A stretch of DNA of 58,485 nt, the filler included, from Limisphaerales bacterium (GTDB taxonomy: Bacteria; Verrucomicrobiota; Verrucomicrobiia; Limisphaerales; SIBE01), in assembly GCA_044225505.1 (NCBI GenBank). It is 3 parts of 2 records of this genome, joined end to end, with 100 filler letters (N's around TTAATTAATTAA, not from the genome) between each part and the next. Parts side by side here need not be neighbours in the genome. Positions count along the whole stretch, not along the records: positions 30,764 to 58,485 come from JBGAIN010000009.1; 2 more parts are not named here. One strand, given 5' to 3'. Below are positions 15,589 through 58,485 of this stretch, one piece after another. The notes beneath the pieces are model-generated. The model did not search any database and was not told where the DNA came from. It saw only the letters and a program-made list of their open reading frames with translations. The number at the start of each line of letters is the position of its first letter. Position 1 is the first letter of the stretch. Position numbers and translations under genes: made by a program.

Positions 15589-15603
15589 GATTCACCCTAG
15601 CTC

Positions 15604-21400: not shown

Positions 21401-21628
21401 CAGTCGCAAGAACCACTTCGCCTTGCCAACTTGAACGGCATCGGTCCATACAGCTGTTGGGCTGCAATCGGAATGCAGTCCGTCTGCAACGTGCCAGCAG
21501 TAGCACAGTAGTTTTTCGACGACCATGCGGGTGAACTGGAGCAACTATGTCTATTATCACTGGGCGCGCCTTTGTTCTCCTTGCGACTCTTGAACGTTGC
21601 GGCGGCAGCGACTGTCCATTAGGCAACG

Positions 21629-21997: not shown

Positions 21998-22015
21998 AGA
22001 CCGTTTTCCATACAA

Positions 22016-22915: not shown

Positions 22916-22921
22916 AAAGTC

Positions 22922-22942
22922 GTGATACCACAATGGCATCAC
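22922..22942. promoter_or_regulatory. LysR recognition site (T-N11-A dyad)
   Basis: GTGATACCA-CAA-TGGCATCAC near-perfect inverted repeat just upstream of the lysR ATG, between divergent genes. Confidence 0.7.
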
Positions 22943-23235
22943 GGAGATAGCGAGCTTTTATTTCCGTTCACACCGATCGCGTGCCACGTTGGGCCGTGAC
23001 GAACCAGTCCCTGGCCATACATTCATTTCTGGAGCTCGGAGTCACGGTGGGCACGCAGGATGCATTGGTGCTGGCGAGCAACGACAAAACTTGCCTGACG
23101 CGCCGTTGGACCGTGAGGACTCGCCCATTCTTCGACTGGGCGATGGGCCCTGTGCCTCTCCAGACTAAGCCCGAACTGGCGTTTGCCGTAGATTTCAGGA
23201 TGGCCCACAACACCGGACGTTAACGCAATTGTTGT

Positions 23236-24552
23236 ATGAACCAAGATTACGACACGATTCTCATTGGAGGTGGTCCTGCCGGAGCCTCCGCGGCGGCGGT
23301 GCTAGCCGAATACGGTCACCGCGTGCTCATTCTCGAACGCGAGAAATTTCCGCGGTATCACATTGGGGAATCGCTCATTCCCTTCACATTCCAGCCGCTG
23401 GAACGTATTGGGATGATTCCCAGGATGAAGGCCTCTCACTTCGTCAAGAAGTACAGTGTGACGTTCGTGCAACCGGATGGGCGTCGTTCTCAACCGTTTT
23501 ACTTCTTCACCCGTTACGACCGTGAAACGGTCGCGCAGACCTGGCAGGTCCTACGTTCGGAATTTGATCAGATGCTCCTGGACAACGCCCGGGAGAAGGG
23601 AGCGGAGGTGCGCGAAGAGACCACCGTGAACCGTTTGCTGATGGAGGGTGACAAAGTCGTGGGAGTGGAAGCGATGGACAAGCGCGGCAAGGTTTATTCC
23701 CTGCACGCGCGCATCGTCCTCGATTGCTCTGGCAAAGAGGCGTTTACGTCCAACCGTTTGGGTTGGCGCCTGCGCGATCCGTACTTGAACAAAATTGCGG
23801 TCTGGACCTATTACCGTGGTTCAAAACGCGAAGCGGACATCGACGAAGGTGCGACGACCGTCGCCTACGTTCCGGATAAAGGCTGGTTTTGGCACATTCC
23901 TCAACACGACGACATGGTGAGCGTGGGGGTTGTGGCCGAAGGCAAATACCTCACTCGTGACGATGTTCGGGATCCGAAACTGATTTTTCAGAGGGAGATT
24001 CATGAGAACGAGTGGATTAAGACGCATTTGGATCTCGGAGAACAGGTCGGCGAATACTTCCTCACTAGCGAGTATTCCCGCCATTCGCGATATTGTGCCG
24101 CCCGAGGATTGCTGCTCGTCGGCGACGCCTTTGCCTTTCTCGATCCGGTGTTCAGCAGCGGCGTGATGCTCGCCTTAAAGAGCGGCGTTCTCGCCGGCGA
24201 GACGGTGCATCAAGGGTTGCTTGCCAATGATCTTTCCCCAGCCCGATTTTCCCAGTACGGAGCAGTGATACGTCAAGGGGTGGAGAATATGCGGAAGCTC
24301 GTCTACGCATTCTACGACCCCCGATTCTCGTTCCGTGAAGTCATAAAAAAGCATCCTGCCGCTGCCGGCCTCATCACCGATTGCCTTTCCGGCGATGTGA
24401 ACAAAGATTTTACCGAGCTTTGGTCCTGGGTAGAGGAATTCGTGCCCCTGCCAAAGGATCTGCCCTACGGCGAACCGCTCTTGAGTCCGAACCACGAAAT
24501 GGCGTGCGCTTCCGGAGGAGGATCGCCGGGCGAGGACCTCAAACTTTCGTGA
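23236..24552 (+). CDS. Flavin-dependent halogenase-like / geranylgeranyl-reductase-family FAD oxidoreductase
   Basis: GGGPAG FAD motif, FPRYHIGESL, WFWHIP (WxWxIP) and GDAFAFLDPVFSSGV. Confidence 0.85.
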   Translation: MNQDYDTILIGGGPAGASAAAVLAEYGHRVLILEREKFPRYHIGESLIPFTFQPLERIGMIPRMKASHFVKKYSVTFVQPDGRRSQPFYFFTRYDRETVAQTWQVLRSEFDQMLLDNAREKGAEVREETTVNRLLMEGDKVVGVEAMDKRGKVYSLHARIVLDCSGKEAFTSNRLGWRLRDPYLNKIAVWTYYRGSKREADIDEGATTVAYVPDKGWFWHIPQHDDMVSVGVVAEGKYLTRDDVRDPKLIFQREIHENEWIKTHLDLGEQVGEYFLTSEYSRHSRYCAARGLLLVGDAFAFLDPVFSSGVMLALKSGVLAGETVHQGLLANDLSPARFSQYGAVIRQGVENMRKLVYAFYDPRFSFREVIKKHPAAAGLITDCLSGDVNKDFTELWSWVEEFVPLPKDLPYGEPLLSPNHEMACASGGGSPGEDLKLS

Positions 24553-24553
24553 T

Positions 24554-27484
24554 TTACGGAGTCCCGCGAACGCTGAGAATGAACGGTCCAGCGATGCGAC
24601 AGGCTGACGGAGCGCCGATCTCACGGCGCAGCCGCCCTAACCAGAGGCCCTGGACCCTAGACAAAGCGCGAGCCGGACTGCCCAGTCGGTGTGCGGTATC
24701 GTAGAAATCGGCTATGAAGTCGGTGGTCTGCGTGTCGTCGATCGACCAGAGGGTTAAGAGCAGGTTCCTGGCGCCGGCGTGAATGAATCCGCGCCGCAGG
24801 CCAAGCACGCCTTCGCCGCTGAGTGCCTCACCTGCGCCCGTATCACAGGCAGAGACCACGACGAGTCGAGTATTCGTCAAATTCAGCAGAGCAATCTCTG
24901 CAGCCGACAGAATGCCGTCGTTGTCCGGCGAGACAGATTCGCCGCGAGTCCACGCGGCGATGGTCCGATGCGCTGAGGCCAAGGCCAAGCCGCTGCGGAG
25001 CATTGGATTGTTGGCGACGCGGAGTGTCTGAGCTATTGAGCCCGGGTGACCGACGGAAGTGCGGTTTTCCTTTTCCGTGAACTCCGGCAGGACGAAGCCA
25101 TGAGTGGCCAAGTGAATCACCTCGGCCTCATCCGTGTGGCGCAACTGGGCTTCGGTGGCTGCTGGTCCGGCGTAAAGATTGACCTGGTTAAAGCCCGGGC
25201 GATGACCTTCGTCGCGCAGGCGTTCTCCTTCCTGGGCCGCCCCAGCGAGCGGTTGAAAACGTCGATTCTTAAGCAGATGCATCGTTCCGGACTGATTAGC
25301 CATCGAAGAGTTCGTTGCCACACTGTGGGAAGTGCCCGTGGTGTCGAAGTCCGGGTTAGCCCAGATCGCCAGCGTCCCGACGTTCGAGGGAGGTGGGCTA
25401 TCCTCCAACAGATCGCGGGCCGCCGAGACATAACTGAAGCTAAAGTCCTCGCCTAGGAAACGGCCGTTCGGTTGAAGGAGCGTCGCGAGAGAGACGAAAT
25501 TGAACTGAGCGTCGGGACTAAAAACAATGTTCGTGGTGGTCAGGGCGTTTTGAATGGGGCGCCAGATTAAATCGTGAAGATCTTTGAGCGTGGTGATGAG
25601 GTCATCCGGGTGCTCTGGGTGGTTCACAGCATGTTGGTAAAGGCGGATCTTGTGTTCGATCGCATTGGCCTCTCCCAGCTGGATCCAGCGTGGCTCCCCT
25701 TCATGCGCAAACACCAAAACACCGTAGTGATTTGTCCATTGGTACGACCCCAAGTAACGCGGATAACAGAGGCCTTCGAGCACGATGGTGTCCTTAGGGA
25801 TGGCCTGTTGCAGGTCTTCAAACGTCGTGTGCAGAATCCGGCGTGTCCACCCGGCACCGCTGATTTGACGAGCTCGAGTCCGTTCCAGCAATTCAACTTC
25901 TTCATGGGCCCGAGCCAGCTCTTGAGTCCAATAGAGCGTGAGATTGGTATTGCTTCCGGAGCTGGCGAGCGCGGTCCGCAGGCCAACAACCCGTTGGCGC
26001 GCGACTTGAATTCGTTGGTTGAGATCCTGGGTTTCGGAATCCCCGCCCTGACTCGCGATGGTTCGCTCTTCGATCAGCGCGTCCAAAACCAGCCCCTTGG
26101 TGCGCAGCAACGCTCGGGCGAGCGGGCGAACTGTGCCGGTACTGGCCCATGGAGAACAACGGTCAGCGACGAAGTTCACCATGACTCCCAAGCGTTGTTT
26201 TTCCGATGTGAAAGAAAGCACATCGTTGATGTAGTTTTCCTCGGCGTCTTGCAACCTCTCCGCGTTGGCCAACGCGGCGTCTTTCTTTCCCATCGCAAAT
26301 TGCACTCGAATCAAATCCCTCAGAGCGCCACACAGCCCATTAAGATAGGGCCCAGGTTTCACGTCGAAGAGCGCGCACGCTTGCAAAACGAATTTCTCCG
26401 CAGCTGCGTAGTTTCCACCTCGTTCTTCGAGCTGCGCCCAAAGCAACAGGCCTTCAAATTGTTTGGTCAATGGCAATGGCACGCCGTCAGGCATGGCCAG
26501 GACGGGCGGTCCGAACACGCGTTGCGCTCGCGCAAGGTCGCCCTCGTTCAAGTAAAGGTCTGCCAGCCCTTGGCGTGTGGACCAGATTGCCTCACCGTGC
26601 TGATCTCCAGTCGCGGCCGATCCTTCCAGAACTTCCAAACGCTGGAGCAGAGTTTTTTCTGCACGAGCGATGTCGCCACGCGCTCGATACACTCGGGCCA
26701 CGAGGTCGGAGGAAGTGGCTAAGGGGTCCGGGAGGGTTTTACCGAGCCGAAGCGCTTTCTCCACGCAACGCTCGGCTCCGTCTGTGTCGCTAATGCTCTG
26801 ATAGAGCCAGCCCAACGCAATCGACGATTTCCACCCAAGGAGATGCCGGTCATCGGACAGCTTCTCGGCAATCGCGATCGTTCGGCTAAAACAGTCCTCA
26901 GCCGCATTGAACTCGCCGACCATCGCTTCGAGTTGTCCGAGTTCATAAAGAACGTAACCAGTGAGGATGTGGTCCGGGCCTAACTCGCGCATTCGAATCG
27001 CCAGCGCGCGGGAGAGATAACTCCTGGCTTTCGGGAAGTCACCCTTCGTTCGGTAAAGGCCACCCATCATATTCAAACGTCGGGTCGTCGCGAGTGACTC
27101 CTTGCCATGGAGGGCTTCGTCGATGGTCAGCGCTCGTTGCCAGAGCTTCTCGGCCGATTCAAGGTCTCCAGCGAGTTGATGAAAAAAGGCCAGAAAGTGC
27201 ACGGCGGTGGCAGTAGCGTCGTCGTTTTCACCACGCAATTGTTGGGCGCGATCGACAAATTGAGCGGCTGCTTTCATGCCCTCGAAATAGTTCGACTCTT
27301 TCACCAGCTGCAGGCACCGATCTTCAAACAGGCCAAGGTCACCTTTGAGTTCCACATCCGCGGAAGTCGCGTTTGGGTGGCACAAAAGCACGAGCAGCCC
27401 GACCAGTCCGGCCAGAATCGATCTCCTGAATGCGGTTCCAGGGAATGCGCAGTGTCGTGAAACCTTGATTCCAATCTCGAACAC
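24554..27484 (-). CDS. Secreted TPR-repeat CHAT (caspase/separase-like) protease
   Basis: Signal-like N-terminus; TPR repeats (ALAIRMRELGPDH); CHAT motifs SPDAQFN, HLATHG (His), VVSACDTG (Cys), GVLGLRRGFIHAGA, TLWSIDD. Confidence 0.9.
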   Translation of the reverse strand: MFEIGIKVSRHCAFPGTAFRRSILAGLVGLLVLLCHPNATSADVELKGDLGLFEDRCLQLVKESNYFEGMKAAAQFVDRAQQLRGENDDATATAVHFLAFFHQLAGDLESAEKLWQRALTIDEALHGKESLATTRRLNMMGGLYRTKGDFPKARSYLSRALAIRMRELGPDHILTGYVLYELGQLEAMVGEFNAAEDCFSRTIAIAEKLSDDRHLLGWKSSIALGWLYQSISDTDGAERCVEKALRLGKTLPDPLATSSDLVARVYRARGDIARAEKTLLQRLEVLEGSAATGDQHGEAIWSTRQGLADLYLNEGDLARAQRVFGPPVLAMPDGVPLPLTKQFEGLLLWAQLEERGGNYAAAEKFVLQACALFDVKPGPYLNGLCGALRDLIRVQFAMGKKDAALANAERLQDAEENYINDVLSFTSEKQRLGVMVNFVADRCSPWASTGTVRPLARALLRTKGLVLDALIEERTIASQGGDSETQDLNQRIQVARQRVVGLRTALASSGSNTNLTLYWTQELARAHEEVELLERTRARQISGAGWTRRILHTTFEDLQQAIPKDTIVLEGLCYPRYLGSYQWTNHYGVLVFAHEGEPRWIQLGEANAIEHKIRLYQHAVNHPEHPDDLITTLKDLHDLIWRPIQNALTTTNIVFSPDAQFNFVSLATLLQPNGRFLGEDFSFSYVSAARDLLEDSPPPSNVGTLAIWANPDFDTTGTSHSVATNSSMANQSGTMHLLKNRRFQPLAGAAQEGERLRDEGHRPGFNQVNLYAGPAATEAQLRHTDEAEVIHLATHGFVLPEFTEKENRTSVGHPGSIAQTLRVANNPMLRSGLALASAHRTIAAWTRGESVSPDNDGILSAAEIALLNLTNTRLVVVSACDTGAGEALSGEGVLGLRRGFIHAGARNLLLTLWSIDDTQTTDFIADFYDTAHRLGSPARALSRVQGLWLGRLRREIGAPSACRIAGPFILSVRGTP

Positions 27485-27564
27485 AGACTCTTGAGTGCGA
27501 GCACCGGTCTAACGGTTTTTCATGCAACTGACAATCGATTTGCCAGAACAGCGTGCATTAATTC

Positions 27565-28236
27565 ATGATCGATGGCATGGACCGTCCGTTCCCTGCCATC
27601 GCGAGCCTAAAGGCTGGCGATGAATCCGCGTGGAGTGCGGCGTTTTCCTGTCTCTGGCCCGTTGCGTTGCACATCGCCAAGACGTCTCCGGGAAAATTGA
27701 CCTTATCCGACGCCGAGGAAATCGCCTGCGACGCGGTCCGGCTGGCCATCCGCGAGATCGCCCACGTCGAGAGCGAACGAGAATTGCGCGCCTTGGTGGC
27801 GGTCATTGCGAGGAGGCGAGCCATCATGTTGTTCCGCAAGAACTCCGCCGGAAAGCGAATTCACGGAAATGGAGTTTTAACCTCGTTTGACACTGGCTGG
27901 GACGAAGCGACGGCCGACCTGATGCATTCCTCGGATCCAGCGGTTTTCTTGATGGAAGCGGAAACACTGCTCCTGCTGGAGGACGCAATGAAGAAGCTGG
28001 ACCCGGTCACGCGGCAGTTGGTCCATGACAAGTATGTGGTCGGGGATTCCTACGAAGAGATCAGCGCCACCCACAAGATTCCCGTGGGCACTCTCTGCCC
28101 TAAAATCATGCGGGCGTTAAAACAGATCCGCGCTCGCCTGCAAGCATCACCAACACTGTTGAAAGAGCTGGGGCAGATTTTGCGACGTTATTCGGGTGAA
28201 AAGGGCGACGAGTGGGATGGGCGCTCGATCGCCTGA
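27565..28236 (+). CDS. ECF RNA polymerase sigma factor
   Basis: Region 2 (GDESAW...DAEEIA...IARRRAI) and region 4 (SYEEISATHKIPVGTLCPKIMRALKQIR). Confidence 0.85.
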   Translation: MIDGMDRPFPAIASLKAGDESAWSAAFSCLWPVALHIAKTSPGKLTLSDAEEIACDAVRLAIREIAHVESERELRALVAVIARRRAIMLFRKNSAGKRIHGNGVLTSFDTGWDEATADLMHSSDPAVFLMEAETLLLLEDAMKKLDPVTRQLVHDKYVVGDSYEEISATHKIPVGTLCPKIMRALKQIRARLQASPTLLKELGQILRRYSGEKGDEWDGRSIA

Positions 28237-28249
28237 GTGTATCTGGAAA

Positions 28250-29536
28250 ATGGATCAGGAATTCGAAATTCTAGCGGCCAAAGTCCTTGCGGGGGAAGCG
28301 TCCCCGGAAGAACGAGCTCGCTTGGACGAATTGCTCATGATCGATCCGCGATTAGAAGATACCCTCGCGGGGTGGGATGAAGCGGGTCGTACGCTCCAAG
28401 GGTTAGGGCCAATTCTTGCCGCGCTGGACGCTCCCCGTCGGACGGTGCCACCGAAACATCTGCGGTCGCTGGAAGATGAGGTCAAAACGTGCTTTGGGCA
28501 CTCTCATATCAACGCGGTTCACGAACCTTGGCGCGAAGAAAAAGCGGAACACTCCGAACCGTTGCCCGTCTGGCTTGGCTTGCTGTTTGGGAAGGGGCAA
28601 TGGGCGGCGGGAGCAATCTTGGGGGCAATCGTGGTCGGCTCGATCCTTTGGTGGTCGCATTCCACGTCGCGAGCGCCCGCGGCGGAGCGAAGCTCCTCCG
28701 TGGTGCATTTCGTTTTGCGCGAGGGTCATGCTCAGCTCCGTCGAAACGGGAGAATCGAGGTCATGCATCCCGTAACGCGACTTCAACAGGATGATCAGCT
28801 GAGCTTGGCGGCCGGGGCCAAGGCTTCGGCGTTCACCCGTGGGGGCACGATTGCGCTTGCGGGTCCTCGCGACGTTGTGGCGGCTGAAATTTTCTCTTTA
28901 CCACCCCAACTGGGGGGGGAAAAGAAAGGCGACGGGGTCCAGACCACCGAATATCTCACGGCCCTGTTCGGCGCCGCCACCGAACTCGAGTCGGCTCGCT
29001 TGCTCCTAACTATCCGCGGTGGGGACCCAATTCACATTTACTCGCCCATCGGCGCCACCAAATCTCTCGTGCCGACCTTCGTTTGGGCGGCCGACCCTGG
29101 TCTGTCCTACGAGATCACTGTCCAGGACGAGCTCGACTCGAGTCAACGACCGTGGGCGCTTACGGCCATTCGTCCACCCGTCGAATTTGCCCAACTCACC
29201 AACGGACCAGCAGCGGAGTTGTCACCGGATGGCCTATACCGAGTAAGCATCGTCGCCTCCGATACTCCATTGTCTAGGTGCACCGCGACCTTTCGCACTC
29301 TCAAAGACGCCGATCGGGCGCGCCCGCCGACGGGCTCGGCCTCGCTCATCCTTGCTGCGGAGATGCTTGCTGCGGACAAAGGACAGACCGGCGACGCGCT
29401 CGGGCAGCTTCTCAATCTCCCGGCGCCTTGGGCGACTTCGGAACTGGCGCTTCGCCTCAAGCTTTTGGCGTTTGGCCGGGCAGGATTTCGCGATGAGTTC
29501 GAATTGACGCTGCGCCAGATTCAAGGAGCGAAATAG
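28250..29536 (+). CDS. Putative transmembrane anti-sigma factor with extracytoplasmic domain
   Basis: N-terminal LAGEASPEERARLDELL (anti-sigma-domain-like); one TM helix (WAAGAILGAIVVGSILWW); C-terminal RGG...SP.G.T...PTFVW segment (DUF928-like); directly follows the ECF gene. Confidence 0.65.
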   Translation: MDQEFEILAAKVLAGEASPEERARLDELLMIDPRLEDTLAGWDEAGRTLQGLGPILAALDAPRRTVPPKHLRSLEDEVKTCFGHSHINAVHEPWREEKAEHSEPLPVWLGLLFGKGQWAAGAILGAIVVGSILWWSHSTSRAPAAERSSSVVHFVLREGHAQLRRNGRIEVMHPVTRLQQDDQLSLAAGAKASAFTRGGTIALAGPRDVVAAEIFSLPPQLGGEKKGDGVQTTEYLTALFGAATELESARLLLTIRGGDPIHIYSPIGATKSLVPTFVWAADPGLSYEITVQDELDSSQRPWALTAIRPPVEFAQLTNGPAAELSPDGLYRVSIVASDTPLSRCTATFRTLKDADRARPPTGSASLILAAEMLAADKGQTGDALGQLLNLPAPWATSELALRLKLLAFGRAGFRDEFELTLRQIQGAK

Positions 29537-29982
29537 CCTTTCTGGGGGGTGGACGACCGATTGTCGCTGGGTTTCAGCGGCTCCCAAAAATGATGCAATA
29601 AGAATCCCGCATTCCGCGACTACTCTGCTGCGCAGTATTATTGCTGGCGCTGGGGCGAAGCGTGCCCGCGTGCCGGTCGCAGGGTGCGGCCGGCTTGAAA
29701 TGGGGCGGGCATGCTTCGACCCAGACGTCCTCGAGACGCTTCTTCCAACTGGGTCGCCGCGGCGCGTTGAGCACGGCTTTAGAGAAATATGCTCGACCCT
29801 CACACCGCAACGGCATCTTTGTGTCGTTGCTCGTTCCTCAGATGCCCTTGCGCTGACGGGCTTTGGCGTCAAAAAGTAAGGTTTTTGCCCAGATTGCCGA
29901 TGTACTCACTGTCGCCCGGACGGCTTTCGCAGCGTTGGCGAAGCTCGGAAGTTCCGGTTTATGTGACGATCATGGTGTTGTT

Positions 29983-30663
29983 ATGGGAAAACGTGACCAC
30001 AGCTCCAACGGGAATCATTCTCTAGAATTCGAGCACGAGCACAAACACGAGCTCGAAGAACTCAAGAACAAGACCTATAAGAAAGAGCTCAAACGGCTCC
30101 AGATCGAATTGGTCAAGCTCCAGGAATGGATCAAGCACAAGGGCTTGAAAGTGGTCGCGCTCTTTGAAGGACGCGATGCCGCTGGCAAAGGCGGCACTAT
30201 CAAGCGGATCTCGCAACGGATGAATCCGCGCATCTGCCGTGTCGTCGCTTTGGCGGCGCCGACCGAGCGGGAGAAGTCCCAGTGGTACTTCCAACGGTAT
30301 GTGGCGCACCTTCCTGCCGCCGGCGAAATGGTTCTCTTCGACCGCAGTTGGTATAACCGCGCTGGGGTGGAACGCGTCATGGGTTATTGCACGGACGCCG
30401 AGTATGAAGAGTTTCTCCATTCATGTCCGGCTTTCGAGCGGATGTTGATTCGCTCTGGGATTATCCTGGTGAAGTATTGGTTTTCGGTGAGCGATCGGGA
30501 ACAGGAAAAAAGATTTCAGGATCGAATGGAGGATCCTACCAAACGCTGGAAGCTCAGTCCCATGGATCTCGAATCCCGGCGTCGTTGGCAGGCCTATTCT
30601 CGAGCCAAGGACACCATGATGGCTCATACGGATAGCAAACAGACGCCCTGGTTCGTGGTGCAC
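29983..30663 (+). CDS. ppk2: Polyphosphate kinase 2 (3' end cut by contig end)
   Basis: FEGRDAAGKGGTIKR, WYFQRY, FDRSWYNRAGVERVMG and WKLSPMD motifs. Confidence 0.95.
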
Positions 30664-30763
30664 NNNNNNNNNNNNNNNNNNNNNNNNNNNNNNNNNNNNN
30701 NNNNNNNTTAATTAATTAANNNNNNNNNNNNNNNNNNNNNNNNNNNNNNNNNNNNNNNNNNNN
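30664..30763. other. Artificial contig linker
   Basis: N runs flanking TTAATTAATTAA at 30708-30719. Confidence 0.97.
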
Positions 30764-51740: not shown

Positions 51741-52100
51741 TTGTTGATGGTGGGGGCCCACTGGCACGTTCTGCAATCCGTCGCCTGGATTCGCCTGCTG
51801 GCTTCGTACTCTCTCACGGATACCTTCGCTACCGCTGTCGTAAAGACCTTTGACGGCAAGCATCCATGCGCCATGTGCCTGAAAATACGCGATGGCCGTC
51901 AGCAGCAGGAAAACGAGCAGAAGGAATTCCCCCTGGCGGAACGGGGGCGAGGCCCAGATCTGTTTTGGGAGTGCCATTGCTCGTTCACTCCCTGGGTTTC
52001 AACGGTTGCCTGGCATGCCGTCCCGTTTTCCCCTTCTCGATATTCCAACTTCATTAGCTCTCCTCCAAAGCCGCCTCCTCGCGCTGGTGCCCATGTCTGA
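51741..52100 (+). CDS. Small Cys/His-motif membrane protein (DUF2946-like), 5' end possibly frameshifted
   Basis: GAHWHVLQSVAW...KTFDGKHPCAMC...PPKPPPR; the upstream ATG 51688 is out of frame across a CT repeat. Confidence 0.6.
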   Translation: MLMVGAHWHVLQSVAWIRLLASYSLTDTFATAVVKTFDGKHPCAMCLKIRDGRQQQENEQKEFPLAERGRGPDLFWECHCSFTPWVSTVAWHAVPFSPSRYSNFISSPPKPPPRAGAHV

Positions 52101-52254
52101 ATCTCCGCGATTAAGGCGCAAGAGCGCTTTGATTTCTTCATTTGGTGGCTTGAGTGAGCCACTGATAACCATTCTCGACTGAAATTGGAGCTGCTCTCCG
52201 ATGGGACAAATTGCCCCCGGGCAGAGCAGTTAACCTTCATACTTTGACAACCTT

Positions 52255-52767
52255 ATGCTGAAATATTCCCAGTTCTTCATCTTTGCTGCTGCTTTGCTTT
52301 TCGAGTCTTCGCTGACCGTCTCCGGCCCGATCCTGTCCAATGTCCCAATGCAAGGGAGCATGGTCATGCCCATGGTGAAGCACGACGCTGCTGCCGCAGC
52401 GTTGCGGGTGACGGTTGATCCAATCGTTCCTGAACTTGTGCCTCTCCGATCCAGCAATCCAGGGGACAGCTTCATCGCTACGGATCCCTGGTTCGAGTTC
52501 CTGGATCCTGCCGCACAGGGGCTCGCCTTCAGCCGTCGCTACGGATTTGTCATGGATACCATGACCGATCCGCTCCCTCCTGAAACTCATAGCATGATCC
52601 GGAAGCTCTCTAGTTCGCCCGGTCTCGGTATCTACCGTTGTCGAGCTACGAACCCCAAGAGCTGGACCCCGATCTTTGGGACCGATAACTCCTCCGTTTC
52701 CATGGCGTGGGACGGAATCACGCGGTTCTGCTTGATCCCAGCCCGGAGAGGAGCTTTTTCCGAATGA
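52255..52767 (+). CDS. Secreted Met-rich hypothetical protein (possibly truncated)
   Basis: Signal-like N-terminus, PMQGSMVMPMV segment. Confidence 0.5.
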   Translation: MLKYSQFFIFAAALLFESSLTVSGPILSNVPMQGSMVMPMVKHDAAAAALRVTVDPIVPELVPLRSSNPGDSFIATDPWFEFLDPAAQGLAFSRRYGFVMDTMTDPLPPETHSMIRKLSSSPGLGIYRCRATNPKSWTPIFGTDNSSVSMAWDGITRFCLIPARRGAFSE

Positions 52768-52785
52768 AGAGGGTTCCCTAGCCGT

Positions 52786-53289
52786 ATGCACTCTGAGTCT
52801 AGACTCCGCTCCGGGCCACCAAAACCAGAAGCGAAGGCTGCCTTCACTCTGATTGAACTACTGGTGATCGTTGCGGTCATAAGTTTGATTGCAGGGCTGT
52901 TGATGCCAGCCATGCCGAAGGCAACACAGGCGGCCCGCCCGGTTCAGTGCTTGAGTCAGATGCGCCAGATCGGAATGGCGGTGCGGCTCTACGCCAATGA
53001 TAACGAAGACCATGTTCCGCGCAGCCAGCATTCGGCGTTTGCCCACAACCAAATGCCTTGGGGCCGAGCTATCGCCGAATACGTTGGAGCCAAACCGAGC
53101 TCCTGGACGAATCTGCTGAACGGGCTTTACCGATGCCCAAAGGATTTGAGGAAAGAACCCTGGCTCTGGGGTTACGGGCAAAAGTCAAACTACTCCTTTG
53201 CTGACGGACATGCGCAGCTTCGTGAGTTTTCCCAGACGAACCATCCGGAGAGCCAAACCGACCTGTGGAACCCATCGAAGGCTCAATGA
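52786..53289 (+). CDS. Prepilin-type N-terminal protein with internally deleted H-X9-DG domain
   Basis: [29 protein letters not shown], then almost directly SNYSFADGH with the upstream His missing; much shorter than the paralog at 14146. Confidence 0.7.
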   Translation: MHSESRLRSGPPKPEAKAAFTLIELLVIVAVISLIAGLLMPAMPKATQAARPVQCLSQMRQIGMAVRLYANDNEDHVPRSQHSAFAHNQMPWGRAIAEYVGAKPSSWTNLLNGLYRCPKDLRKEPWLWGYGQKSNYSFADGHAQLREFSQTNHPESQTDLWNPSKAQ

Positions 53290-53308
53290 GCTCACGCATC
53301 CTTATCCT

Positions 53309-53581
53309 ATGAAGAACCGGCATGAACTTGGTGATGCGGAGTTGGTCACATACGCCCAACGGGGAGACTTCGGTGCCTTCGACACTCTGGTCACCCGTTA
53401 CGAGAGGCTGATCTTCTCCTATGCCCTCGCAATCAGCACAAGCCCACGCCAGGCAGAGCACTTTACCGAATTAATCTTCCTGAGGGCAATGGACGACCTT
53501 GGACCATTCGACGCCCGGCTCGGTTTTCAAGCTTGGCTCTGGGCCGCTGCGGCGGGGTCGGATGCCAATGGCTTAAGGTGA
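53309..53581 (+). pseudogene. ECF sigma factor fragment (region 2 only)
   Basis: DAELVTYAQRGDFGAFDTLVTRYERLIF...FQAWLW, then stop; no region 4. Confidence 0.75.
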
Positions 53582-53593
53582 GAAAGAACGGTT

Positions 53594-53619
53594 TGTAACT
53601 TTCCTGGCTTTGGTGGCTC
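53594..53619 (+). promoter_or_regulatory. ECF-type promoter TGTAAC-N15-GGCTC
   Basis: TGTAACTTTCCTGGCTTTGGTGGCTC, third copy with identical spacing. Confidence 0.65.
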
Positions 53620-53691
53620 AATAGCCGACGTGAAACTGTTGCACAACGGAATGCTTGCGTGCCCTGCGTTGGCCAGCCACAAGGAGATGCT

Positions 53692-53997
53692 ATGTGGCCT
53701 GCGTTAATACCTATCGGCGTGGGCGGTTTGCTCGGAGCGGCACTGGGATACTTCGGCCAGTGCTCCTCAGGAACATGCCCCTTAACCTCAACCTGGTGGC
53801 GCGGGGCACTCTACGGTGCTGCGTTGGGCGCCATGTTTGGCTTCGGCTCGAATCGGCGTGATTACGCCGAGACCACCGGAAACTCGACCAACGTGCTGCA
53901 CATCGCTCAGTCAGAGTTCGAAGCCGTGGTCCTGAATTCAGACCAGGCCGTCGAAAGGGTCAGGCCCGCAGAATGCAATATAGATGTTGACGCTTGA
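53692..53997 (+). pseudogene. DUF6132-like membrane domain + truncated thioredoxin
   Basis: AAGGAG SD; GYFGQCSSGTCPLTSTWWRGALYG; then the thioredoxin start (HIAQSEFEAVVLNSDQAV) breaks off before the WCxxC motif. Confidence 0.7.
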
Positions 53998-54159
53998 GGC
54001 GAGGCAGCGGCAGGTTCTTGGAATGGCGTGGAAACCGGGGGTGCAGTATCCTCAGCGGACGATAGAATGCGTTGCCGGTGGACGGGAGCGGCAACAGAAA
54101 CTTGAGAAGGGCTTGTGATTACAGGCCCTGGCCATGAATCGCCGCTTCCTGGATGATGG

Positions 54160-54418
54160 GCGCAGCAGACTGGCAACTCTGTCTGCTTCCGGATGAGTGT
54201 CACCCATAGTCGTTTCTAGGTGCGAGTGACCGAGAACAACCTGGTGCCAGCAGCTTGAGGGTTTGGCTTCCGTGGTCAGGAGGGGTTTGGGGTGAGGACT
54301 CTGTAGGAAGCGTGTTGGTGGCGAGCACACCGGACATAGGATTTTTTTCGGTGTTGGGCGCGGTATGGTGAAGAGAGCAAGCTCCATCTAATAAACGGAT
54401 TGCGAGGCCCTGTTTCAT
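54160..54418 (-). pseudogene. Collapsed IntI-like tyrosine recombinase (integron integrase remnant)
   Basis: The N-terminus can be rebuilt across frameshifts as MKQGLAIRLLD...HTAPNTEK|SYVR(W)...RFLQ. It joins the C-terminal box II QVVLGHSHLETTMG-D-THPEADRVASLL (54243-54163), where the catalytic Tyr position reads GAC. Divergent from the cassette array. Confidence 0.75.
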
Positions 54419-54485
54419 TCTAGATACGCGAACGGACGGTCAGGGTATAAGAAAAACGGGTCGATGGAGTCGGCTTTCTTGGAAG

Positions 54486-54518
54486 TTGACATTAGGCCTG
54501 GTAACTGAGTAATGTCAA
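54486..54518. promoter_or_regulatory. Symmetric bidirectional sigma70-type promoter (candidate Pc/Pint)
   Basis: TTGACATTA-N15-TAATGTCAA; each strand reads TTGACA-N18-TAATGT. Confidence 0.6.
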
Positions 54519-54575
54519 TAACATGAGGAGATTGAATGCTTCGGCCGTGAATTTACATATCCGAACCATTGGTTT

Positions 54576-54594
54576 GCATACCCAATAGTTCGCT
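54576..54594 (+). mobile_element. Candidate attI site, crossover G|TT at 54588
   Basis: GCATAC-CCAATA-GTTCGCT; GTTCGCT is the exact reverse complement of R'' (AGCGAAC) of the first attC, and no attC hairpin precedes it. Confidence 0.75.
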
Positions 54595-54600
54595 CAAAGA

Positions 54601-54628
54601 TCGACATTCCTGGCATTTTCGGTAGATT
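54601..54628 (+). promoter_or_regulatory. Cassette-internal promoter of the TA module (likely leaderless mRNA)
   Basis: TCGACA-N16-TAGATT ending 6 nt before ATG 54635; no SD. Confidence 0.5.
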
Positions 54629-54634
54629 CTCCCC

Positions 54635-54829
54635 ATGAGTGCGCCAACGCAGTATTTGACAGACGCCAACGGCGCTAAAGTTGCGGCGGTCATCCCCATC
54701 GACGAATATGAGGAATTGATGGAGGACCTCAACGATTTGGCCGTCGTCGCCGAGCGCCGCGACGAGCCGCGGGTTTCCTTCGAGGAGGTAAAACGACGTT
54801 TGAAGGAAGATGGCTGCCTACCGAGTTGA
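54635..54829 (+). CDS. Type II antitoxin (RelB-like), cassette 1
   Basis: QYLTDANGAKVAAVIPIDEYEELMEDLNDLAVVAERRDEP..SFEEVKRRL; overlaps the toxin start. Confidence 0.8.
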   Translation: MSAPTQYLTDANGAKVAAVIPIDEYEELMEDLNDLAVVAERRDEPRVSFEEVKRRLKEDGCLPS

Positions 54830-55069
54830 GTTCCGAGGCTCTGCTGATCGAGAGTTGTCGCGCCTCAATCGGCAGGTGCTCCAGAGCTGGTTGAGGCGAT
54901 CGATGCACTTGGCGAGCAACCCAGGCCGGTCGGGGTGCGGAAGCTGGCCGGAGCAGAGCACACTTACCGGATTCGAGTTGGAGACTATCGGGTTATTTAC
55001 ACGATCGACGAGGCGGGCAAGATTGTAACCATTGAGCGTGTCCGCCACCGGAGCGACGCATACCGATGA
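54810..55069 (+). pseudogene. relE: RelE/ParE-family toxin with a 1-nt frameshift near 54886, cassette 1
   Basis: MAAYRVEFRGSADRELSRLNRQVLQ|LVEAIDALGEQPRPVGVRKLAGAEHTYRIRVGDYRVIYTIDEAGKIVTIERVRHRSDAYR*. Confidence 0.85.
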
Positions 55070-55079
55070 ATACCCAAAG

Positions 55080-55168
55080 AGCGAACCACCGACTGCAATG
55101 AACAGCGGGACAGCCAAACCGTGGAGTGGAGCCCATTGGGTCGCTGTCATTGAGTCGGACCGTTCGGC
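55080..55168 (+). mobile_element. attC site 1 (89 bp)
   Basis: R'' AGCGAAC; arm CCGACT(G)CAATGA(A)CAGCG pairs with CGCTGTCATTGAGTCGG; R' GTTCGGC. Confidence 0.92.
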
Positions 55169-55188
55169 GGTGACCATGCGATGCATCT

Positions 55189-55803
55189 ATGAATGAGAAA
55201 TGCAATGTTCTCGTGGTAATGGCTATTCTGACGGGCTTTCTCGCCGGTTGTGGCACAGCCACGCATTCGAAATCGGTGTCGGCGTCGACGTGCGGGACCG
55301 CCCAAGTGAGGGAGTTAGCAATAGGTATGGCGGATGTCGATGCTCAAGGCATTTTGTTCCTTGATCTAGATCGTAATCGGAGTCTCAAAGCGCCCGTGAG
55401 AGTGCGTTTCTCCCAACTGGGGGGACTGGAGATCACTCCCGCATTATCGCAGTGGCTGCGGGGGAACGGGATCGATCTGTTGGTGCAGTTGGTGCCCGAG
55501 GTCAAGGTGGCTGGATCGGCAACGACTTTTCCTGGGGCGCATTTGAGGGGCGTTAATCTGCGGGGGGTAACGGTTCTGGAGGACAAGATTCGGAGGAGAT
55601 CCAAGGCAGATTCGCTGCAAAAGAGTTGGCCGAACCCGGATCCCGAATGCGATGTCTCGAGCAGCCGTTTGGTTGGTCTAGGGGTCGAGGTGTACCGCGT
55701 CCTGTTGCGAACGCAAGAGGGGCGCGTGTTTGCACTTGAGGAAGAGGAACGCCTTCCTGACGGTGTTAGGATTCGCTATGAAGAAGTGGCGACGCTTCGG
55801 TGA
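55189..55803 (+). CDS. Hypothetical lipoprotein, cassette 2
   Basis: Lipobox FLAGC after a hydrophobic leader; stop 4 nt before attC2. Confidence 0.7.
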   Translation: MNEKCNVLVVMAILTGFLAGCGTATHSKSVSASTCGTAQVRELAIGMADVDAQGILFLDLDRNRSLKAPVRVRFSQLGGLEITPALSQWLRGNGIDLLVQLVPEVKVAGSATTFPGAHLRGVNLRGVTVLEDKIRRRSKADSLQKSWPNPDPECDVSSSRLVGLGVEVYRVLLRTQEGRVFALEEEERLPDGVRIRYEEVATLR

Positions 55804-55807
55804 GAGT

Positions 55808-55900
55808 GCTGAACAAGCCACTCCAGCGGATGCCGGGAGAACGTTCCGGTTGCAGAGCGGGGCGTCTTTGGCCCGGCACCGCTGAGTTCCGTCGTTACCC
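55808..55900 (+). mobile_element. attC site 2 (93 bp)
   Basis: R'' GCTGAAC; ACTC(C)AGCGG(A)TGCCGGG pairs with CCCGGCACCGCTGAGT; R' GTTACCC. Confidence 0.92.
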
Positions 55901-55907
55901 CTGAATC

Positions 55908-56408
55908 GTGAGCACTTCGGAACTTTGGAATACTCTACTGCTCATCCTAACGAGGATCGTGCTACCGCTCGTCGTGATTTTTGCAATCGGCTCGGGAATT
56001 AGTGGGTGGGTTCTCTTGGCGCGCAAATACCCGGAACGTTCATGTGCGATGGAGGAGACCTTTCCGTCTACCTCAGGCTATTTCGGAGGTTTGATTGCAT
56101 GTTACAGAAGGTCGATTACGGTAAGCACCGGTTCATCTGGCTTGCGCCTTTCTACTACACGTTTACTCAGCCTGTTTCATTCGCCGATCTTTTTGCCTTG
56201 GACAGCCTTGACTTGTTGTTCCGTCGCCGATTTTCTGGGGTTGCGGCGTGGCATAAGGCTGGACATTGCTGGCCGGAAGAGGCCGATTTATTTGTATGGA
56301 TTCCTCTGGAAATACGGGGACGCCCCAGCCCGAATTGTCAATAACTGGCAACAACACCGTCAGAGCGGGGTAACCACCGAGTGCAATGAACGGCGAATCA
56401 AAGCATAA
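55908..56408 (+). CDS. Hypothetical membrane protein, cassette 3
   Basis: N-terminal TM; GW..LARKY, LFHSPIFLPW; the stop lies inside attC3. Confidence 0.7.
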   Translation: MSTSELWNTLLLILTRIVLPLVVIFAIGSGISGWVLLARKYPERSCAMEETFPSTSGYFGGLIACYRRSITVSTGSSGLRLSTTRLLSLFHSPIFLPWTALTCCSVADFLGLRRGIRLDIAGRKRPIYLYGFLWKYGDAPARIVNNWQQHRQSGVTTECNERRIKA

Positions 56409-56459
56409 GCGACAATCTATTAGCAGCTTCGTCGCCGTAATTGACTCGGATTGTTCGGC
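56368..56459 (+). mobile_element. attC site 3 (92 bp)
   Basis: R'' GGGTAAC (exact complement of the preceding GTTACCC); CCGAGT(G)CAATG(A)ACGGCGA pairs with TCGCCGTAATTGACTCGG; R' GTTCGGC. Confidence 0.92.
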
Positions 56460-56460
56460 A

Positions 56461-57048
56461 ATGAGAGGCTCCTTGCGCGCTGTGCGCAAAATCTTTGGGT
56501 CGCTGGTCCTGACTGGTTGGGTGCTAGTCTCCGCCTTTGCTCAGAGTTCGAATTTCCTTTCTTTAACGGTCACCGTCTTGGCCCCTGAGCAAAATGAGAA
56601 GTTCTCGCGGTTAGCGTTTGACCTTTGCAATAGCTCGAGCAAAACACAGGAGTTCGTCATACCCTTGACCAACGTTTTCCCCGGGACTGTTTCGCTGCTT
56701 TTGCCAAACGACGAAGTCCGAGAGTTCGTCCATACCAACTATTGGAATCGGATAATGACCACTTATTGGTTTCGGCCGTCGGTTGTCTTACGGCCTAAAC
56801 AATGCCTCCGTTTCGAGACATCAACCGCGGACTTCATCGATCCCGAAAGGCCGAGCCCCCTCAGACACCCCCGTAAACTCCCCGCGTCCATCGCTCCCGA
56901 TTTTCCTACGCTTGCATCGGAACTTCGCTTGGGATGTTGGCTCAGCTCCCGAGTTGAAATCCAGCGGCAAAAGCATCTGCCGGGAGGCTACGTCACCAAT
57001 GTGGATATTGGGTCAATCGTCTCTCCGCAAATCCGATACGTAAAGTGA
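56461..57048 (+). CDS. Hypothetical secreted protein, cassette 4
   Basis: ATG 1 nt after R'; signal peptide ending SAFA|Q. Confidence 0.7.
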   Translation: MRGSLRAVRKIFGSLVLTGWVLVSAFAQSSNFLSLTVTVLAPEQNEKFSRLAFDLCNSSSKTQEFVIPLTNVFPGTVSLLLPNDEVREFVHTNYWNRIMTTYWFRPSVVLRPKQCLRFETSTADFIDPERPSPLRHPRKLPASIAPDFPTLASELRLGCWLSSRVEIQRQKHLPGGYVTNVDIGSIVSPQIRYVK

Positions 57049-57052
57049 AATG

Positions 57053-57145
57053 GCCGAACCAGCCGATTGCACCGAACCCGGCGAAGACCGTCCGGTTCCA
57101 AATCGATTACCACATCTGCCGGGTCGGTGACCGGCGTTGTTGGTC
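57053..57145 (+). mobile_element. attC site 4 (93 bp)
   Basis: R'' GCCGAAC; GCCGATTGCACCGAACCCGGC pairs with GCCGGGTCGGTGACCGGC; R' GTTGGTC. Confidence 0.92.
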
Positions 57146-57149
57146 GCGT

Positions 57150-57434
57150 ATGAGCACGCCGACTCGATTCTCCTCAACTGGTTGGCGCTGGGCGCTCATC
57201 ACCTCGCAGTTACTGGTGGTGACGTTCTGTGTCATGGACCGCATCTTGATAGCCGAGGCCGGTCATCGGGCTCATTTTGCCACGGCTCCGTCGCTCATCG
57301 TCGGCATCCTGGTTTTCCCGGCACTGCTGTTCCTGCTTTTCGGCAGCCCTTTTCTTGTGAGATTGCTCGGGCCGGTTGCGATTACCGGTTGGTGCGTGGG
57401 CGCTGCGGCGCTCGTATTCTCCCATGGACTATGA
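57150..57434 (+). CDS. Small 3-TM membrane protein, cassette 5
   Basis: ATG 4 nt after R'; three hydrophobic segments. Confidence 0.65.
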   Translation: MSTPTRFSSTGWRWALITSQLLVVTFCVMDRILIAEAGHRAHFATAPSLIVGILVFPALLFLLFGSPFLVRLLGPVAITGWCVGAAALVFSHGL

Positions 57435-57447
57435 ACTCAAAAGGAGC

Positions 57448-57573
57448 GACTAACCAAACGCCGAAAGCGAACTGGCGCAGCCCCGATCCGTGTGATGCCT
57501 TGAGGCAGCTTGGCCGTCGCTTGCCCCTTTGGAGATTCCTCTTCAGCGCCAGTCGCTTGGCTTATTGTTGGCC
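57448..57573 (+). mobile_element. attC site 5 (126 bp, long variable terminal structure)
   Basis: R'' GACTAAC; GCCGAAAGCGAACTGGCGC pairs with GCGCCAGTCGCTTGGC; R' GTTGGCC. Confidence 0.88.
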
Positions 57574-57584
57574 GTAACCGTGTC

Positions 57585-57863
57585 ATGCGCTACCTCGCAG
57601 TCCAGTGGCACCAGAATTGTCCGGACGATCCAATTGCGATATTGTCGGAAATTGACGACGATGGTTGGGAGCAACGAAAAGTGGAAATCTACGCTGATGG
57701 TCGGACCGACTACGCTAACAAGATCGAGCAGACCAGAACGACTGAGCTTGGCCTTTCCCCCATTCCATCGCTAGCTGAGATCGAAGCTGACCCGCAGTTC
57801 GGTCCTCGCGACATTTCGCGAGAAGAGTTTGAGACGTCATGGAAGAGAGCAACAGGATACTAA
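57585..57863 (+). CDS. Acidic DUF6881-like protein, cassette 6
   Basis: MRYLAVQWHQNCPDDP..ILSEIDDDGWEQRKVEIYADG...IPSLAEI...F.PRDISREEFE..W. Confidence 0.75.
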   Translation: MRYLAVQWHQNCPDDPIAILSEIDDDGWEQRKVEIYADGRTDYANKIEQTRTTELGLSPIPSLAEIEADPQFGPRDISREEFETSWKRATGY

Positions 57864-57864
57864 C

Positions 57865-57957
57865 GGCCAACAACGCCATGCACACGAGCTCCGCGATAAC
57901 GACCAGGTTACAAATCGAAAGCCACCGGCGCGGAGTCGGTGATGGCGACCGTTGGGC
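57865..57957 (+). mobile_element. attC site 6 (93 bp)
   Basis: R'' GGCCAAC; CGCCAT(G)CAC(A)CGA(G)CTCCGCG pairs with CGCGGAGTCGGTGATGGCG; R' GTTGGGC. Confidence 0.92.
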
Positions 57958-57980
57958 GGTAACAAGCAGCACCCCGATCT

Positions 57981-58382
57981 ATGCCGCGAACAGATATTGA
58001 GGAATTCGGGCGACTACTGATCAAGCAGGTCAGAGATCAAGCGATCGCGAATTGCGATCGAAGACTGCAAGCCCGTAGGACGGACCCTATTTCGAAGCGC
58101 TGGCAGGCAGCCTTGAGTACCAGGAGCTCAGAAGAGATCCTGAAGGTCGCCATACCGGACATCGTGGATACGGTCATCGCCGAACTGCTCCGAGGCATCG
58201 ACCAGGAGACCCTCCCTTTGGCTTTTACAGCCTCCAACGGAGCCACAGTTGATCTCTCTCGTGATGGGCTAGGTGAACTTTGCGGCTGGTTCATGGGCGA
58301 GTGGCGTTTCAGGCACTCCGACGAGCGGGTGGTGGACGATTTTGCGGACCTCCGAGGCCCTCCAGACGATACCCAAAAATGA
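57981..58382 (+). CDS. Hypothetical helical protein, cassette 7
   Basis: EEFGRLLIKQVRDQAI...IPDIVD...DGLGELCGW; fills the space between attC6 and attC7. Confidence 0.75.
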   Translation: MPRTDIEEFGRLLIKQVRDQAIANCDRRLQARRTDPISKRWQAALSTRSSEEILKVAIPDIVDTVIAELLRGIDQETLPLAFTASNGATVDLSRDGLGELCGWFMGEWRFRHSDERVVDDFADLRGPPDDTQK

Positions 58383-58395
58383 GAACCAACAGAAC

Positions 58396-58485
58396 GCCCA
58401 ACAAGCCAGATGCAGTGAACCCGGCGATAGCGCTCTGGTTGACAATCGAGTGCTAGGCGCGCCGGGTCACTGATCTGGATCGTTA
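58396..58485 (+). mobile_element. attC site 7 (R' cut by window end)
   Basis: R'' GCCCAAC; CCAGAT(G)CAGTGA(A)CCCGGCG pairs with CGCCGGGTCACTGATCTGG; R' GTTA... Confidence 0.92.

Follow-up and report, generated by a model that had tools for sequence, protein, structure and literature searches.

Can an integron array that has lost its neighbouring integrase gene still exchange cassettes? The question is raised by the right-hand end of a stretch of 58,485 nucleotides (the window) from the Limisphaerales bacterium assembly GCA_044225505.1, for which a preliminary description, made from the sequence alone, had reported seven integron cassettes in a row, linked by an unbroken chain of complementary R' and R'' boxes beside a dead integrase. 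The window is a composite: positions 1–11972 are contig C328, and positions 12073–30663 and 30764–58485 are two pieces of contig C330 (1–18591 and 82592–110313), joined by runs of N at 11973–12072 and 30664–30763. Its end is the end of C330, and the whole array lies inside one piece, C330:82592–110313. The metagenome-derived bin, of an uncultured wastewater bacterium, comprises 9.04 Mb in 342 contigs and is 95% complete with 4.7% contamination. We conclude with high confidence that the region represents the attI-proximal end of an integron array located in the chromosome, in a genome of ~9 Mb that probably belongs to the Verrucomicrobiota, and that the cis integrase of this array was destroyed by deletions. 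With the integrase destroyed, the locus is formally a cluster of attC sites lacking an integron integrase (CALIN) next to an intI pseudogene: it has seven sites, spacing below 4 kb and only stubs of the integrase.

All fourteen heptamers of the reported array were located at the positions collected in Table 1, and the seven attC sites, at 55080–58485 and all on the + strand, are spaced 0.3–0.7 kb apart. The R'' box of each cassette complements the opening GTTNNNN of the same cassette, five exactly and two with one mismatch as described (0, 1, 0, 0, 1, 0 and 0 for cassettes 1–7, two in total), versus 2, 3, 3, 2, 2, 1 and 1 mismatches (14 in total) with the R' box physically present in the same attC. 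Only 2 of the 5040 permutations of the openings yield two mismatches or fewer, namely the real order and the one obtained by exchanging the two openings that both read GTTCGGC. For 17 adjacent attC pairs on other contigs, some of which have a missed site or an intI in between, the mean number of mismatches in the four variable positions is 1.35 to the own opening, compared with 2.41 to the physical R' and 2.27 over all combinations. On C60, an opening GTTGCGC from attI is paired by R'' GCGCAAC, seen by eye at a site unscored in the genome scan. Complementarity between the beginning of a cassette and the R'' of that cassette is a long-established consequence of the circular intermediate; the chain is a textbook integron-cassette signature and not a new phenomenon. 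In the mechanism that we adopt from established integron biology, each unit would be a promoterless or self-promoted open reading frame (ORF) followed by an attC, whose bottom strand would fold into an R/L-box hairpin with extrahelical bases. IntI would cut at the conserved AAC triplet, corresponding to G↓TT on the top strand, and cassettes would be excised as circles and reinserted into attI or another attC, so that the first six bases of an integrated cassette would be the other half of its own R', complementing its own R''.

To define the repeats as attC sites, covariance models were used. RNAalifold on a plain MAFFT alignment recovered the inner stem alone, and the R/L-box structure was therefore written by hand for the first model (R1), which consists of the seven aligned window sites and this structure. 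Over the 58-kb window R1 returned exactly the seven + strand sites (E 3e-7 to 2e-17) and no other attC; two further, weak matches were reverse-strand echoes of these seven. Elsewhere in the assembly R1 matched sites adjoining intact and broken integron integrase genes (C60, C311), as well as two sites on C201. A second model (R2), built from 17 hits, gave at least 50 matches on 22 contigs of the genome, a lower bound with 150 of 3861 first-look candidates scored. The 17-row alignment fitted to the model holds 16 distinct sites, attC7 being present twice (window and C201). In this alignment 87.3% of cells are paired and 15 of 23 pairs show compensatory change, values matched by none of 500 shuffles, and in slid controls the paired fraction drops to 25–44%. 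The L-box helix taken by itself is 88.5% paired, with compensatory change in 14 of its 18 pairs. Preliminary inspection had noted that many cores deviate from GTTRRRY, and only two of eight R'-type heptamers fit this consensus in full; AAC and GTT are nevertheless invariant in 17/17 rows, including all seven window sites. In 11 of the 17 rows the fourth R-box pair is open, which a hybrid physical R' would lead one to expect. Searched against Rfam, the entire window had no family at gathering threshold, nor did 53500–58485 have any at E ≤ 1, which says little, since Rfam gave no attC match for any of these sites. Collectively, model matches and covariation support the proposed attC array, and we conclude that the repeats are real integron attC sites.

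Folded as DNA, the bottom strands of all seven sites form R/L-box hairpins with two to three bulge positions on the 3' ('') arm, which agrees with the two or three extrahelical bases given in the preliminary description. Fold-energy z-scores against shuffles are −3.6, −2.0, −3.1, −1.2, −1.2, −3.2 and −4.7 for sites 1–7, and the R boxes are paired in the minimum-energy fold at five of the seven sites. Folds and alignment alike place the extrahelical bases on the '' arm with six pairs separating the first from the last one. The unpaired alignment columns 17, 21 and 25 correspond to positions 16, 20 and 24 in the relevant passages of Nivina 2016 (PMC5027507), where the extrahelical-base geometry matches that of the sites described here. 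The L''-proximal extrahelical base on the bottom strand is C in 13 of the 17 rows (A in two, G and T in one each), and the distal base is T in 15. Most attC sites of this genome are T-N6-C and not the usual T-N6-G, sites beside the intact integrase included; attC2 is T-N6-G. Larouche and Roy 2011 (PMC3053210) report that engineered T-N6-C sites recombined at least as well as T-N6-G with several integrases. Their sites likewise have two extrahelical bases, six paired bases between them and a distal T, whereas the C that they describe as rare in nature, the passage concerned citing only the blaVIM-2 cassette, is the majority state in this genome.

We then asked what is left of the integrase. Adjacent to the array it is not simply dead, as previously described, but almost wholly deleted, with stubs only remaining. 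A C-terminal remnant of 25 codons, the only match of the C60 IntI in the window, was recovered by tblastn with 76% identity (E 2.9e-7 against the window, 4.5e-5 against the genome). When its alignment is set beside that of the C60 IntI with VchIntIA (2a3v), the position of the catalytic tyrosine reads D. TIGR02249 had no match on C330 at E ≤ 0.01, and therefore no full integron integrase gene adjoins the array. A second segment, closer to the first cassette, is tentatively assigned as a probable intI 5' stub. It shares only 12–15 bases with intI 5' ends on C60, has 64 bases of homology with the same stub on C273, and gave no protein-level match when the C60 IntI was compared with the window by tblastn. 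About 300 codons of intI, together with its 3' end, were lost in two or more deletions, and one of these ends within a miniature inverted-repeat transposable element (MITE) whose break abuts the remnant at 54168/54169. Full copies of this MITE carry 17-bp terminal inverted repeats, GGGGTCAG(G/T)CCCGCAGA, and the alignment of copies also places the truncation point. BLAST returned 28 matches in the genome, 15 of them at least 190 nt long at ~89–95% identity. In the public metagenome runs X1, X2 and X16 the summed contig depth of the MITE is 240–312 versus about 7 in the flanks (~35–40x), and the corresponding X6 value is 86.7, the adjacent sequence there having little cover or none. On each of C132 and C252, a MITE copy has inserted a few bases past a short attC site's R'' box.

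A single gene in the genome exceeds the TIGR02249 cut-off (C60:69303–70238; 267.6 bits versus 265, model positions 2–313 of 315). The encoded protein aligns to VchIntIA (2a3v) over residues 10–308 with E 8.8e-49 and with the catalytic Tyr aligned; judged by this full-length likeness, inserted domain and catalytic residues included, it is an intact integron integrase. Its closest relatives stem from metagenome-assembled genomes titled Verrucomicrobiota, Verrucomicrobiia or Limisphaerales, with 45–52% identity. A broken TIGR02249 copy is found on C311, and tblastn detected further intI fragments, an N-terminal piece of 150 residues on C60 and one of 45 residues on C162, with attC sites after each. 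The genome consequently contains several integron platforms, most of them decayed, a situation known in other phyla from Nemergut 2008 and Cury 2016.

The platform between the intI stub and the first cassette is retained. Its homology to C273 (blastn, 74.6% over 173 nt) spans window positions 54367–54594 and C273:14767–14990. Inspection by eye showed a candidate promoter (TTGACA-N18-TAATGT), a ribosome-binding site (GAGGAG) and an ORF of four codons, and a TTGACA-type hexamer, GAGGAG and a tiny ORF were also seen by eye on C273. The 35 bases before 54594 are laid out as an inverted repeat CGAACC..GGTT(T/C)G, ~15 nt and TAGTT. The intact intI on C60 has this layout directly next to its start codon, and it recurs next to the truncated intI fragments of C60 and C162; the resemblance is weaker on C273 and C311. 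When cassette 1 is compared with its copies in relatives, homology sets in exactly at the GTT of this element (54588). These likenesses point to an attI-like site of the kind that the intact integrase's platform also carries. Four other platforms (C162, C273, C311 and C60) have the same first cassette, a unit of ~180–260 bp with GGAATCG-type short repeats. No obvious long ORF was noticed in this unit, where ORFs were not listed systematically, and the unit may represent a cassette, non-coding or with a micro-ORF, that is retained in first position.

If the cassettes are units that were excised as circles and reinserted, as had been suggested, they should be found bounded alike in other contexts and should be gained or lost as wholes. 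A DNA search of 40 related genomes, one per species and hence silent on strains, revealed no syntenic copy of the array. Window positions 54588–55070, however, have counterparts, 71% identical, in two further genera of this family (G007, G008). These copies of cassette 1 have the same GTTCGCT...AGCGAAC bounds, start directly after an unrelated attC and not after attI, and end with R'' AGCGAAC and an attC.

Cassette loss was observed in metagenomes. Public runs from 12 studies contain parts of the stretch, and contigs of four runs were aligned to 52000–58485. In X6 (wastewater), a 1054-nt contig passes directly from 55893 to 56453; the 559 bases left out, with GTT alone common to the two ends, make up exactly cassette 3. 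This contig is >99% identical on both sides of the joint, with 1–2 differing letters per piece and a shorter side of 192 nt. The same 55893 to 56453 joint, with a shorter side of only 27 nt, is present in X2 (activated sludge), which also has a contig containing cassette 3. Moreover, a 1669-nt contig of X2 (99.3% identical) carries the MITE end, the stub, attI and cassettes 1–2. Depths in X2 are 3.8 for the junction with cassette 3, 5.2 for the junction without it and 7.6 for the platform; the junction depths sum to roughly the depth of the flank, suggesting that both forms sit behind the stub in this sample. Since only three bases are shared at the joint, homologous recombination is excluded as its cause, and a site-specific crossover at G↓TT is the simple explanation for the loss of cassette 3. 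Past 57141, the R' of attC4, the X6 contig and one X2 contig cease to match the window and continue with different sequence. X2 is without contig cover over 57642–58292 and X6 over several bins; missing cover was not used as evidence of absence. The like bounds of cassette 1 in G007 and G008 and the exact loss of cassette 3 in two independent metagenome studies bear out the description of cassettes as discrete mobile units, with crossover at G↓TT.

Two readings in which there is no array of this kind have to be considered. The repeats might be other intergenic palindromes, such as repetitive extragenic palindromic (REP) or bacterial interspersed mosaic element (BIME)-like sequences or terminator hairpins, whose heptamers are complementary by chance. 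Unremarkable folding energies at two to three of the seven sites would fit such palindromes, as would the lack of Rfam matches, although the latter is uninformative for attC. Against this stand the permutation test (2/5040), the asymmetric extrahelical bases at canonical spacing, the model matches to these elements beside genuine integron integrase genes, and unit bounds that fall precisely at G↓TT both in relatives and among population variants, so that we regard chance palindromes as scarcely credible. It is also very improbable that the array is an assembly or binning chimera of similar repeats from different organisms. The window does consist of N-joined pieces of two contigs, the bin has 342 contigs, and public-run contigs break at attC R' boxes; yet the array lies within one contig piece, such breaks are expected from cassette polymorphism in the assembly graph, and contigs from independent runs bridge 54557–55896, 56026–57231, 57539–57952 and 57924–58485 with 0–3 differences each.

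Whether the integron array described here still moves is less certain. Recent cassette turnover, if any, would be catalysed in trans by the single intact IntI on C60, a step to which we assign roughly an even chance. The cassettes of the C60 integron use the same attC type as the array, and C60 carries a copy of a multi-copy repeat also present on C330, which favours both contigs belonging to one genome. An integrase acting in trans, raised in the preliminary description, is in this respect plausible on sequence grounds, if unproven. We tentatively propose, at somewhat less than even confidence, that the integrase-deleted array is still being remodelled in wild populations by an IntI encoded elsewhere in the same genome. 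Several observations weigh against our interpretation. No cassette of the array is duplicated elsewhere in the genome, and hence there is no sign of recent movement within it. The platform in X6 is covered only by contigs of 95–97% identity, which leaves stub and deletion unlinked in that run. In a 342-contig bin with 4.7% contamination, the intact IntI may be in another cell. The consensus promoter scan called no cassette promoter (Pc), the TTGACA-N18-TAATGT candidate included. With respect to the sites themselves, the covariance models were built from the very sites tested, the minimum-energy folds of sites 4 and 5 do not clearly surpass shuffles (z about −1.2), and in those of sites 2 and 3 the R boxes are unpaired. 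Alternatively, the array could be a fossil, built under a working cis integrase and immobile since, with the chain as a historical scar and the cassette 3 variant as an old polymorphism or one that arose in a lineage with a working cis integrase. The chain indeed records past events only, two of its seven pairs are mismatched, the toxin of cassette 1 is frameshifted, and the other arrays of the genome share none of its cassettes. Almost nothing of the integrase is left, the flanks are decayed (MITE, truncated sigma-factor gene, truncated thioredoxin-like gene), and in Xanthomonas intI inactivation is reported to accompany stable arrays (10.1101/2025.06.18.660453). Fossilization is less easily reconciled with X2, where the contig of stub, attI and cassettes 1–2 (7.6) coexists with cassette-3-present (3.8) and cassette-3-absent (5.2) junctions, or with seven attC sites that all still score highly and an intact IntI in the bin using the same attC type. 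We consider a fossil array a serious possibility, though short of probable.

Table 1 Features of the array, its platform and its surroundings (window coordinates unless a contig is named; bits and E for attC from the covariance model)
Feature	Position	Strand	Remarks
Cassette openings	54588, 55162, 55894, 56453, 57139, 57567, 57951	+	cassettes 1–7
R'' boxes	55080, 55808, 56368, 57053, 57448, 57865, 58396	+	cassettes 1–7
DUF1559/prepilin-type protein, 167 aa	within 52786–53997		family matches sub-threshold only
ECF sigma factor	within 52786–53997		truncated, region 2 only left
DUF6132/thioredoxin-like ORF	53659–53997		DUF6132 match; interrupted by MITE left end
Truncated copy of ~310-bp MITE	53948–54168	+	left end intact, right ~95 bp lost
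intI C-terminal remnant, 25 codons	54169–54243	−	matches residues 308–332 of intact IntI on C60
Probable intI 5' stub, first ~10 codons (MKQGLAIRLLD...)	54388–54418	−	ORF start at 54418
Platform region, intI stub to attI	54367–54587	+	homologous to C273:14767–14985
attI-like site	54545–54594	+	putative crossover at G↓TT of GTTCGCT (54588)
Cassette 1, 574 bp	54589–55162	+	toxin-antitoxin pair; attC1 55080–55168, 78.3 bits
RelB/Phd-like antitoxin	54635–54829	+	intact; PF18506, E 1.2e-7, 31.9 bits versus 27-bit cut-off
ParE/RelE toxin	54810–55069	+	PF05016, E 1.8e-11, second frame only
Cassette 2, 732 bp	55163–55894	+	ORF 55189–55803, 204 aa; attC2 55808–55900, 77.9 bits
Cassette 3, 559 bp	55895–56453	+	ORF 55908–56408 or 56006–56344; attC3 56368–56459, 55.5 bits
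Cassette 4, 686 bp	56454–57139	+	ORF 56461–57048, 195 aa; attC4 57053–57145, 80.9 bits
Cassette 5, 428 bp	57140–57567	+	ORF 57150–57434, 94 aa, hydrophobic
attC5	57448–57573	+	long form, 126 nt; 40.4 bits, E 3.4e-7
Cassette 6, 384 bp	57568–57951	+	ORF 57585–57863, 92 aa, DUF6881 (PF21812, E 6.4e-33)
attC6	57865–57957	+	three extrahelical bases; 78.2 bits
Cassette 7, 531 bp to G at 58482	57952–58485	+	ORF 57981–58382, 133 aa
attC7	58396 to window end	+	completed at C201:51–143; 82.3 bits in window, 91.2 bits on C201
Shared first-cassette unit of other platforms	C162:16534–16712; C273:14986–15245; C311:24704–about 24960; C60:64728–64908		

All cassette ORFs read with the attC top strand, and the content is typical of chromosomal integrons, with toxin-antitoxin genes, DUF6881, GNAT and family-less proteins. 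Cassette 1 carries its own promoter-like site at 54601–54628, called by the consensus promoter scan. Its type II toxin-antitoxin pair is not intact: the toxin frame is broken by a −1 frameshift near 54878–54885, while the copies in G007 and G008 encode intact toxins of 86 aa. By eye, the protein of cassette 2 has a signal-peptide/lipobox-like N-terminus and that of cassette 4 a signal-peptide-like one. The five cassettes 2–5 and 7 have no Pfam, NCBIfam or PADLOC family, PADLOC identified no defence family among the 11 cassette proteins, and NCBIfam gave only sub-threshold toxin-antitoxin and GNAT matches for them.

The array was predicted to continue beyond the window, and the continuation was found on C201: the last 140 bases of the window (58346–58485) are identical to C201:1–140, and about four more cassettes follow, giving a whole array of ~9 kb with about 11 cassettes, seven of them in the window. 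Their order is a GNAT acetyltransferase cassette, a 2.7-kb recombinase/IS91 unit with its genes on the strand opposite to the array, an orphan cassette of 293 aa whose chain is exact (GTTAGGC/GCCTAAC), and a second antitoxin/ParE pair. The acetyltransferase lies far under every aminoglycoside-acetyltransferase cut-off, and no resistance call was made. After the second antitoxin/ParE pair the model found no attC on C201, and ORF translation inspected by eye places a type I restriction gene fragment next. Two attC-like sites seen by eye on C201 (~696–803 and after 5012) were not called by the model even with filters off, and the fold of the former is no better than shuffles (z −0.87); both were treated as degenerate or as part of the recombinase/IS91 unit.

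This unit, at C201 about 704–3405 (0.7–3.4 kb past the window end), encodes an Xer/IntI-like tyrosine recombinase (369 aa) and an IS91-family Y2 transposase (377 aa). A second copy lies at C122:45389–48033, and nine copies were found in six genomes of the order, with transposase identities of 54–78%. Every copy is inside a host attC, antisense to the array, with the crossover in the R'' (AAC) box. A left flank was available for eight copies, seven of which show the full host heptamer yyyyAAC (yyyy variable), four bases before the start of the conserved part of the unit; for the eighth, sequence was available only for the AAC. The conserved part begins with a short attC-like hairpin followed by GTTGAAC, and the right end reads GTTCAAC in 9/9 copies, then CAG (or CAA, CAT, AAG) and a variable host attC body, the unit ends GTTGAAC/GTTCAAC being self-complementary. 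R2 matched the right-hand host attC in seven of eight unit loci, always antisense to the two genes, and weakly matched the unit's own hairpin (E 0.07–1) in three of eight, on the gene-sense strand. Read along its own strand, the unit resembles a canonical cassette, yet it is inverted in every copy. By analogy, it may be an attC-targeting element with a habit like that described for IS1111-attC elements and group IIC-attC introns, or else a cassette whose entry is systematically on the 'wrong' strand. A full-text literature search combining IS91, tyrosine recombinase and attC brought up no such element among the matches listed, and we make no claim that none exists.

Upstream of the array, genes are ordinary chromosomal ones, including a cytochrome bd oxidase, a MacB-type ABC exporter and a CoA-disulfide-reductase/rhodanese cluster. 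The three ORFs just before the array (52786–53997) appear decayed. Both ends of C328 (window 1–147 and 11801–11972) consist of multi-copy repeats with dozens of 85–100% identical copies elsewhere in the contig set, many at contig ends, and are probably insertion-sequence ends that broke the assembly.

Arrays without a functional adjoining integrase but with an IntI elsewhere in the genome have been classed as CALIN by Cury 2016 (PMC4889954), who found intI pseudogenes near 15 of 279 CALIN, list Verrucomicrobia among the integron-bearing phyla and raise the possibility that CALIN cassettes are captured by integrases encoded elsewhere. The locus described here resembles these clusters. Unlike the pseudogenes counted there, which cover >50% of the profile, it retains 25 codons and a probable stub, together with an attI-like site. 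With the Vibrio cholerae superintegron it shares the chromosomal location, the same-strand array, self-promoted toxin-antitoxin cassettes, mostly uncharacterised small ORFs and attC sites of one sequence family in the lineage. It is, however, much shorter, with about 11 cassettes, belongs to a genome with several platforms and mostly broken integrases, and has attC sites of ~90 nt with an L''-proximal extrahelical C in 13/17 rows versus the usual G. Nemergut 2008 (PMC2426708) reported that about one third of Xanthomonas intI genes are pseudogenes. As in the Xanthomonas integrons (PMC2426708; 10.1101/2025.06.18.660453), an ancestral platform is accompanied by a decaying integrase and a persisting array, but where Xanthomonas arrays are described as stable after inactivation, cassette 3 is here variably present in natural populations. 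The R'/R'' definitions and the AAC cleavage triplet are given in PMC3053210 and PMC5027507. The chain is established biology; so are deviation from GTTRRRY outside GTT, intI pseudogenes beside arrays and possible trans-mobilisation (PMC4889954, PMC2426708, PMC5027507).

The understanding of integrons is therefore unchanged by this locus, the chain being the expected scar of a known mechanism. What it adds to the Verrucomicrobiota is a well-delimited chromosomal integron with attI, about 11 cassettes, a decayed integrase and a candidate for action in trans; to our knowledge, integrons have been little described in this phylum. It also provides two natural demonstrations of mobility, one cassette behind different attC sites in three genera and the exact deletion of a single cassette. 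Of specialist interest are the predominance of the L''-proximal C and the prospect of following the trans movement of CALIN cassettes in wastewater time series. If remodelling by the distant IntI is real, the array would represent a natural, trackable case of CALIN trans-mobilisation, with a lineage-specific T-N6-C attC 'code' common to the array and to the platform of the integrase.

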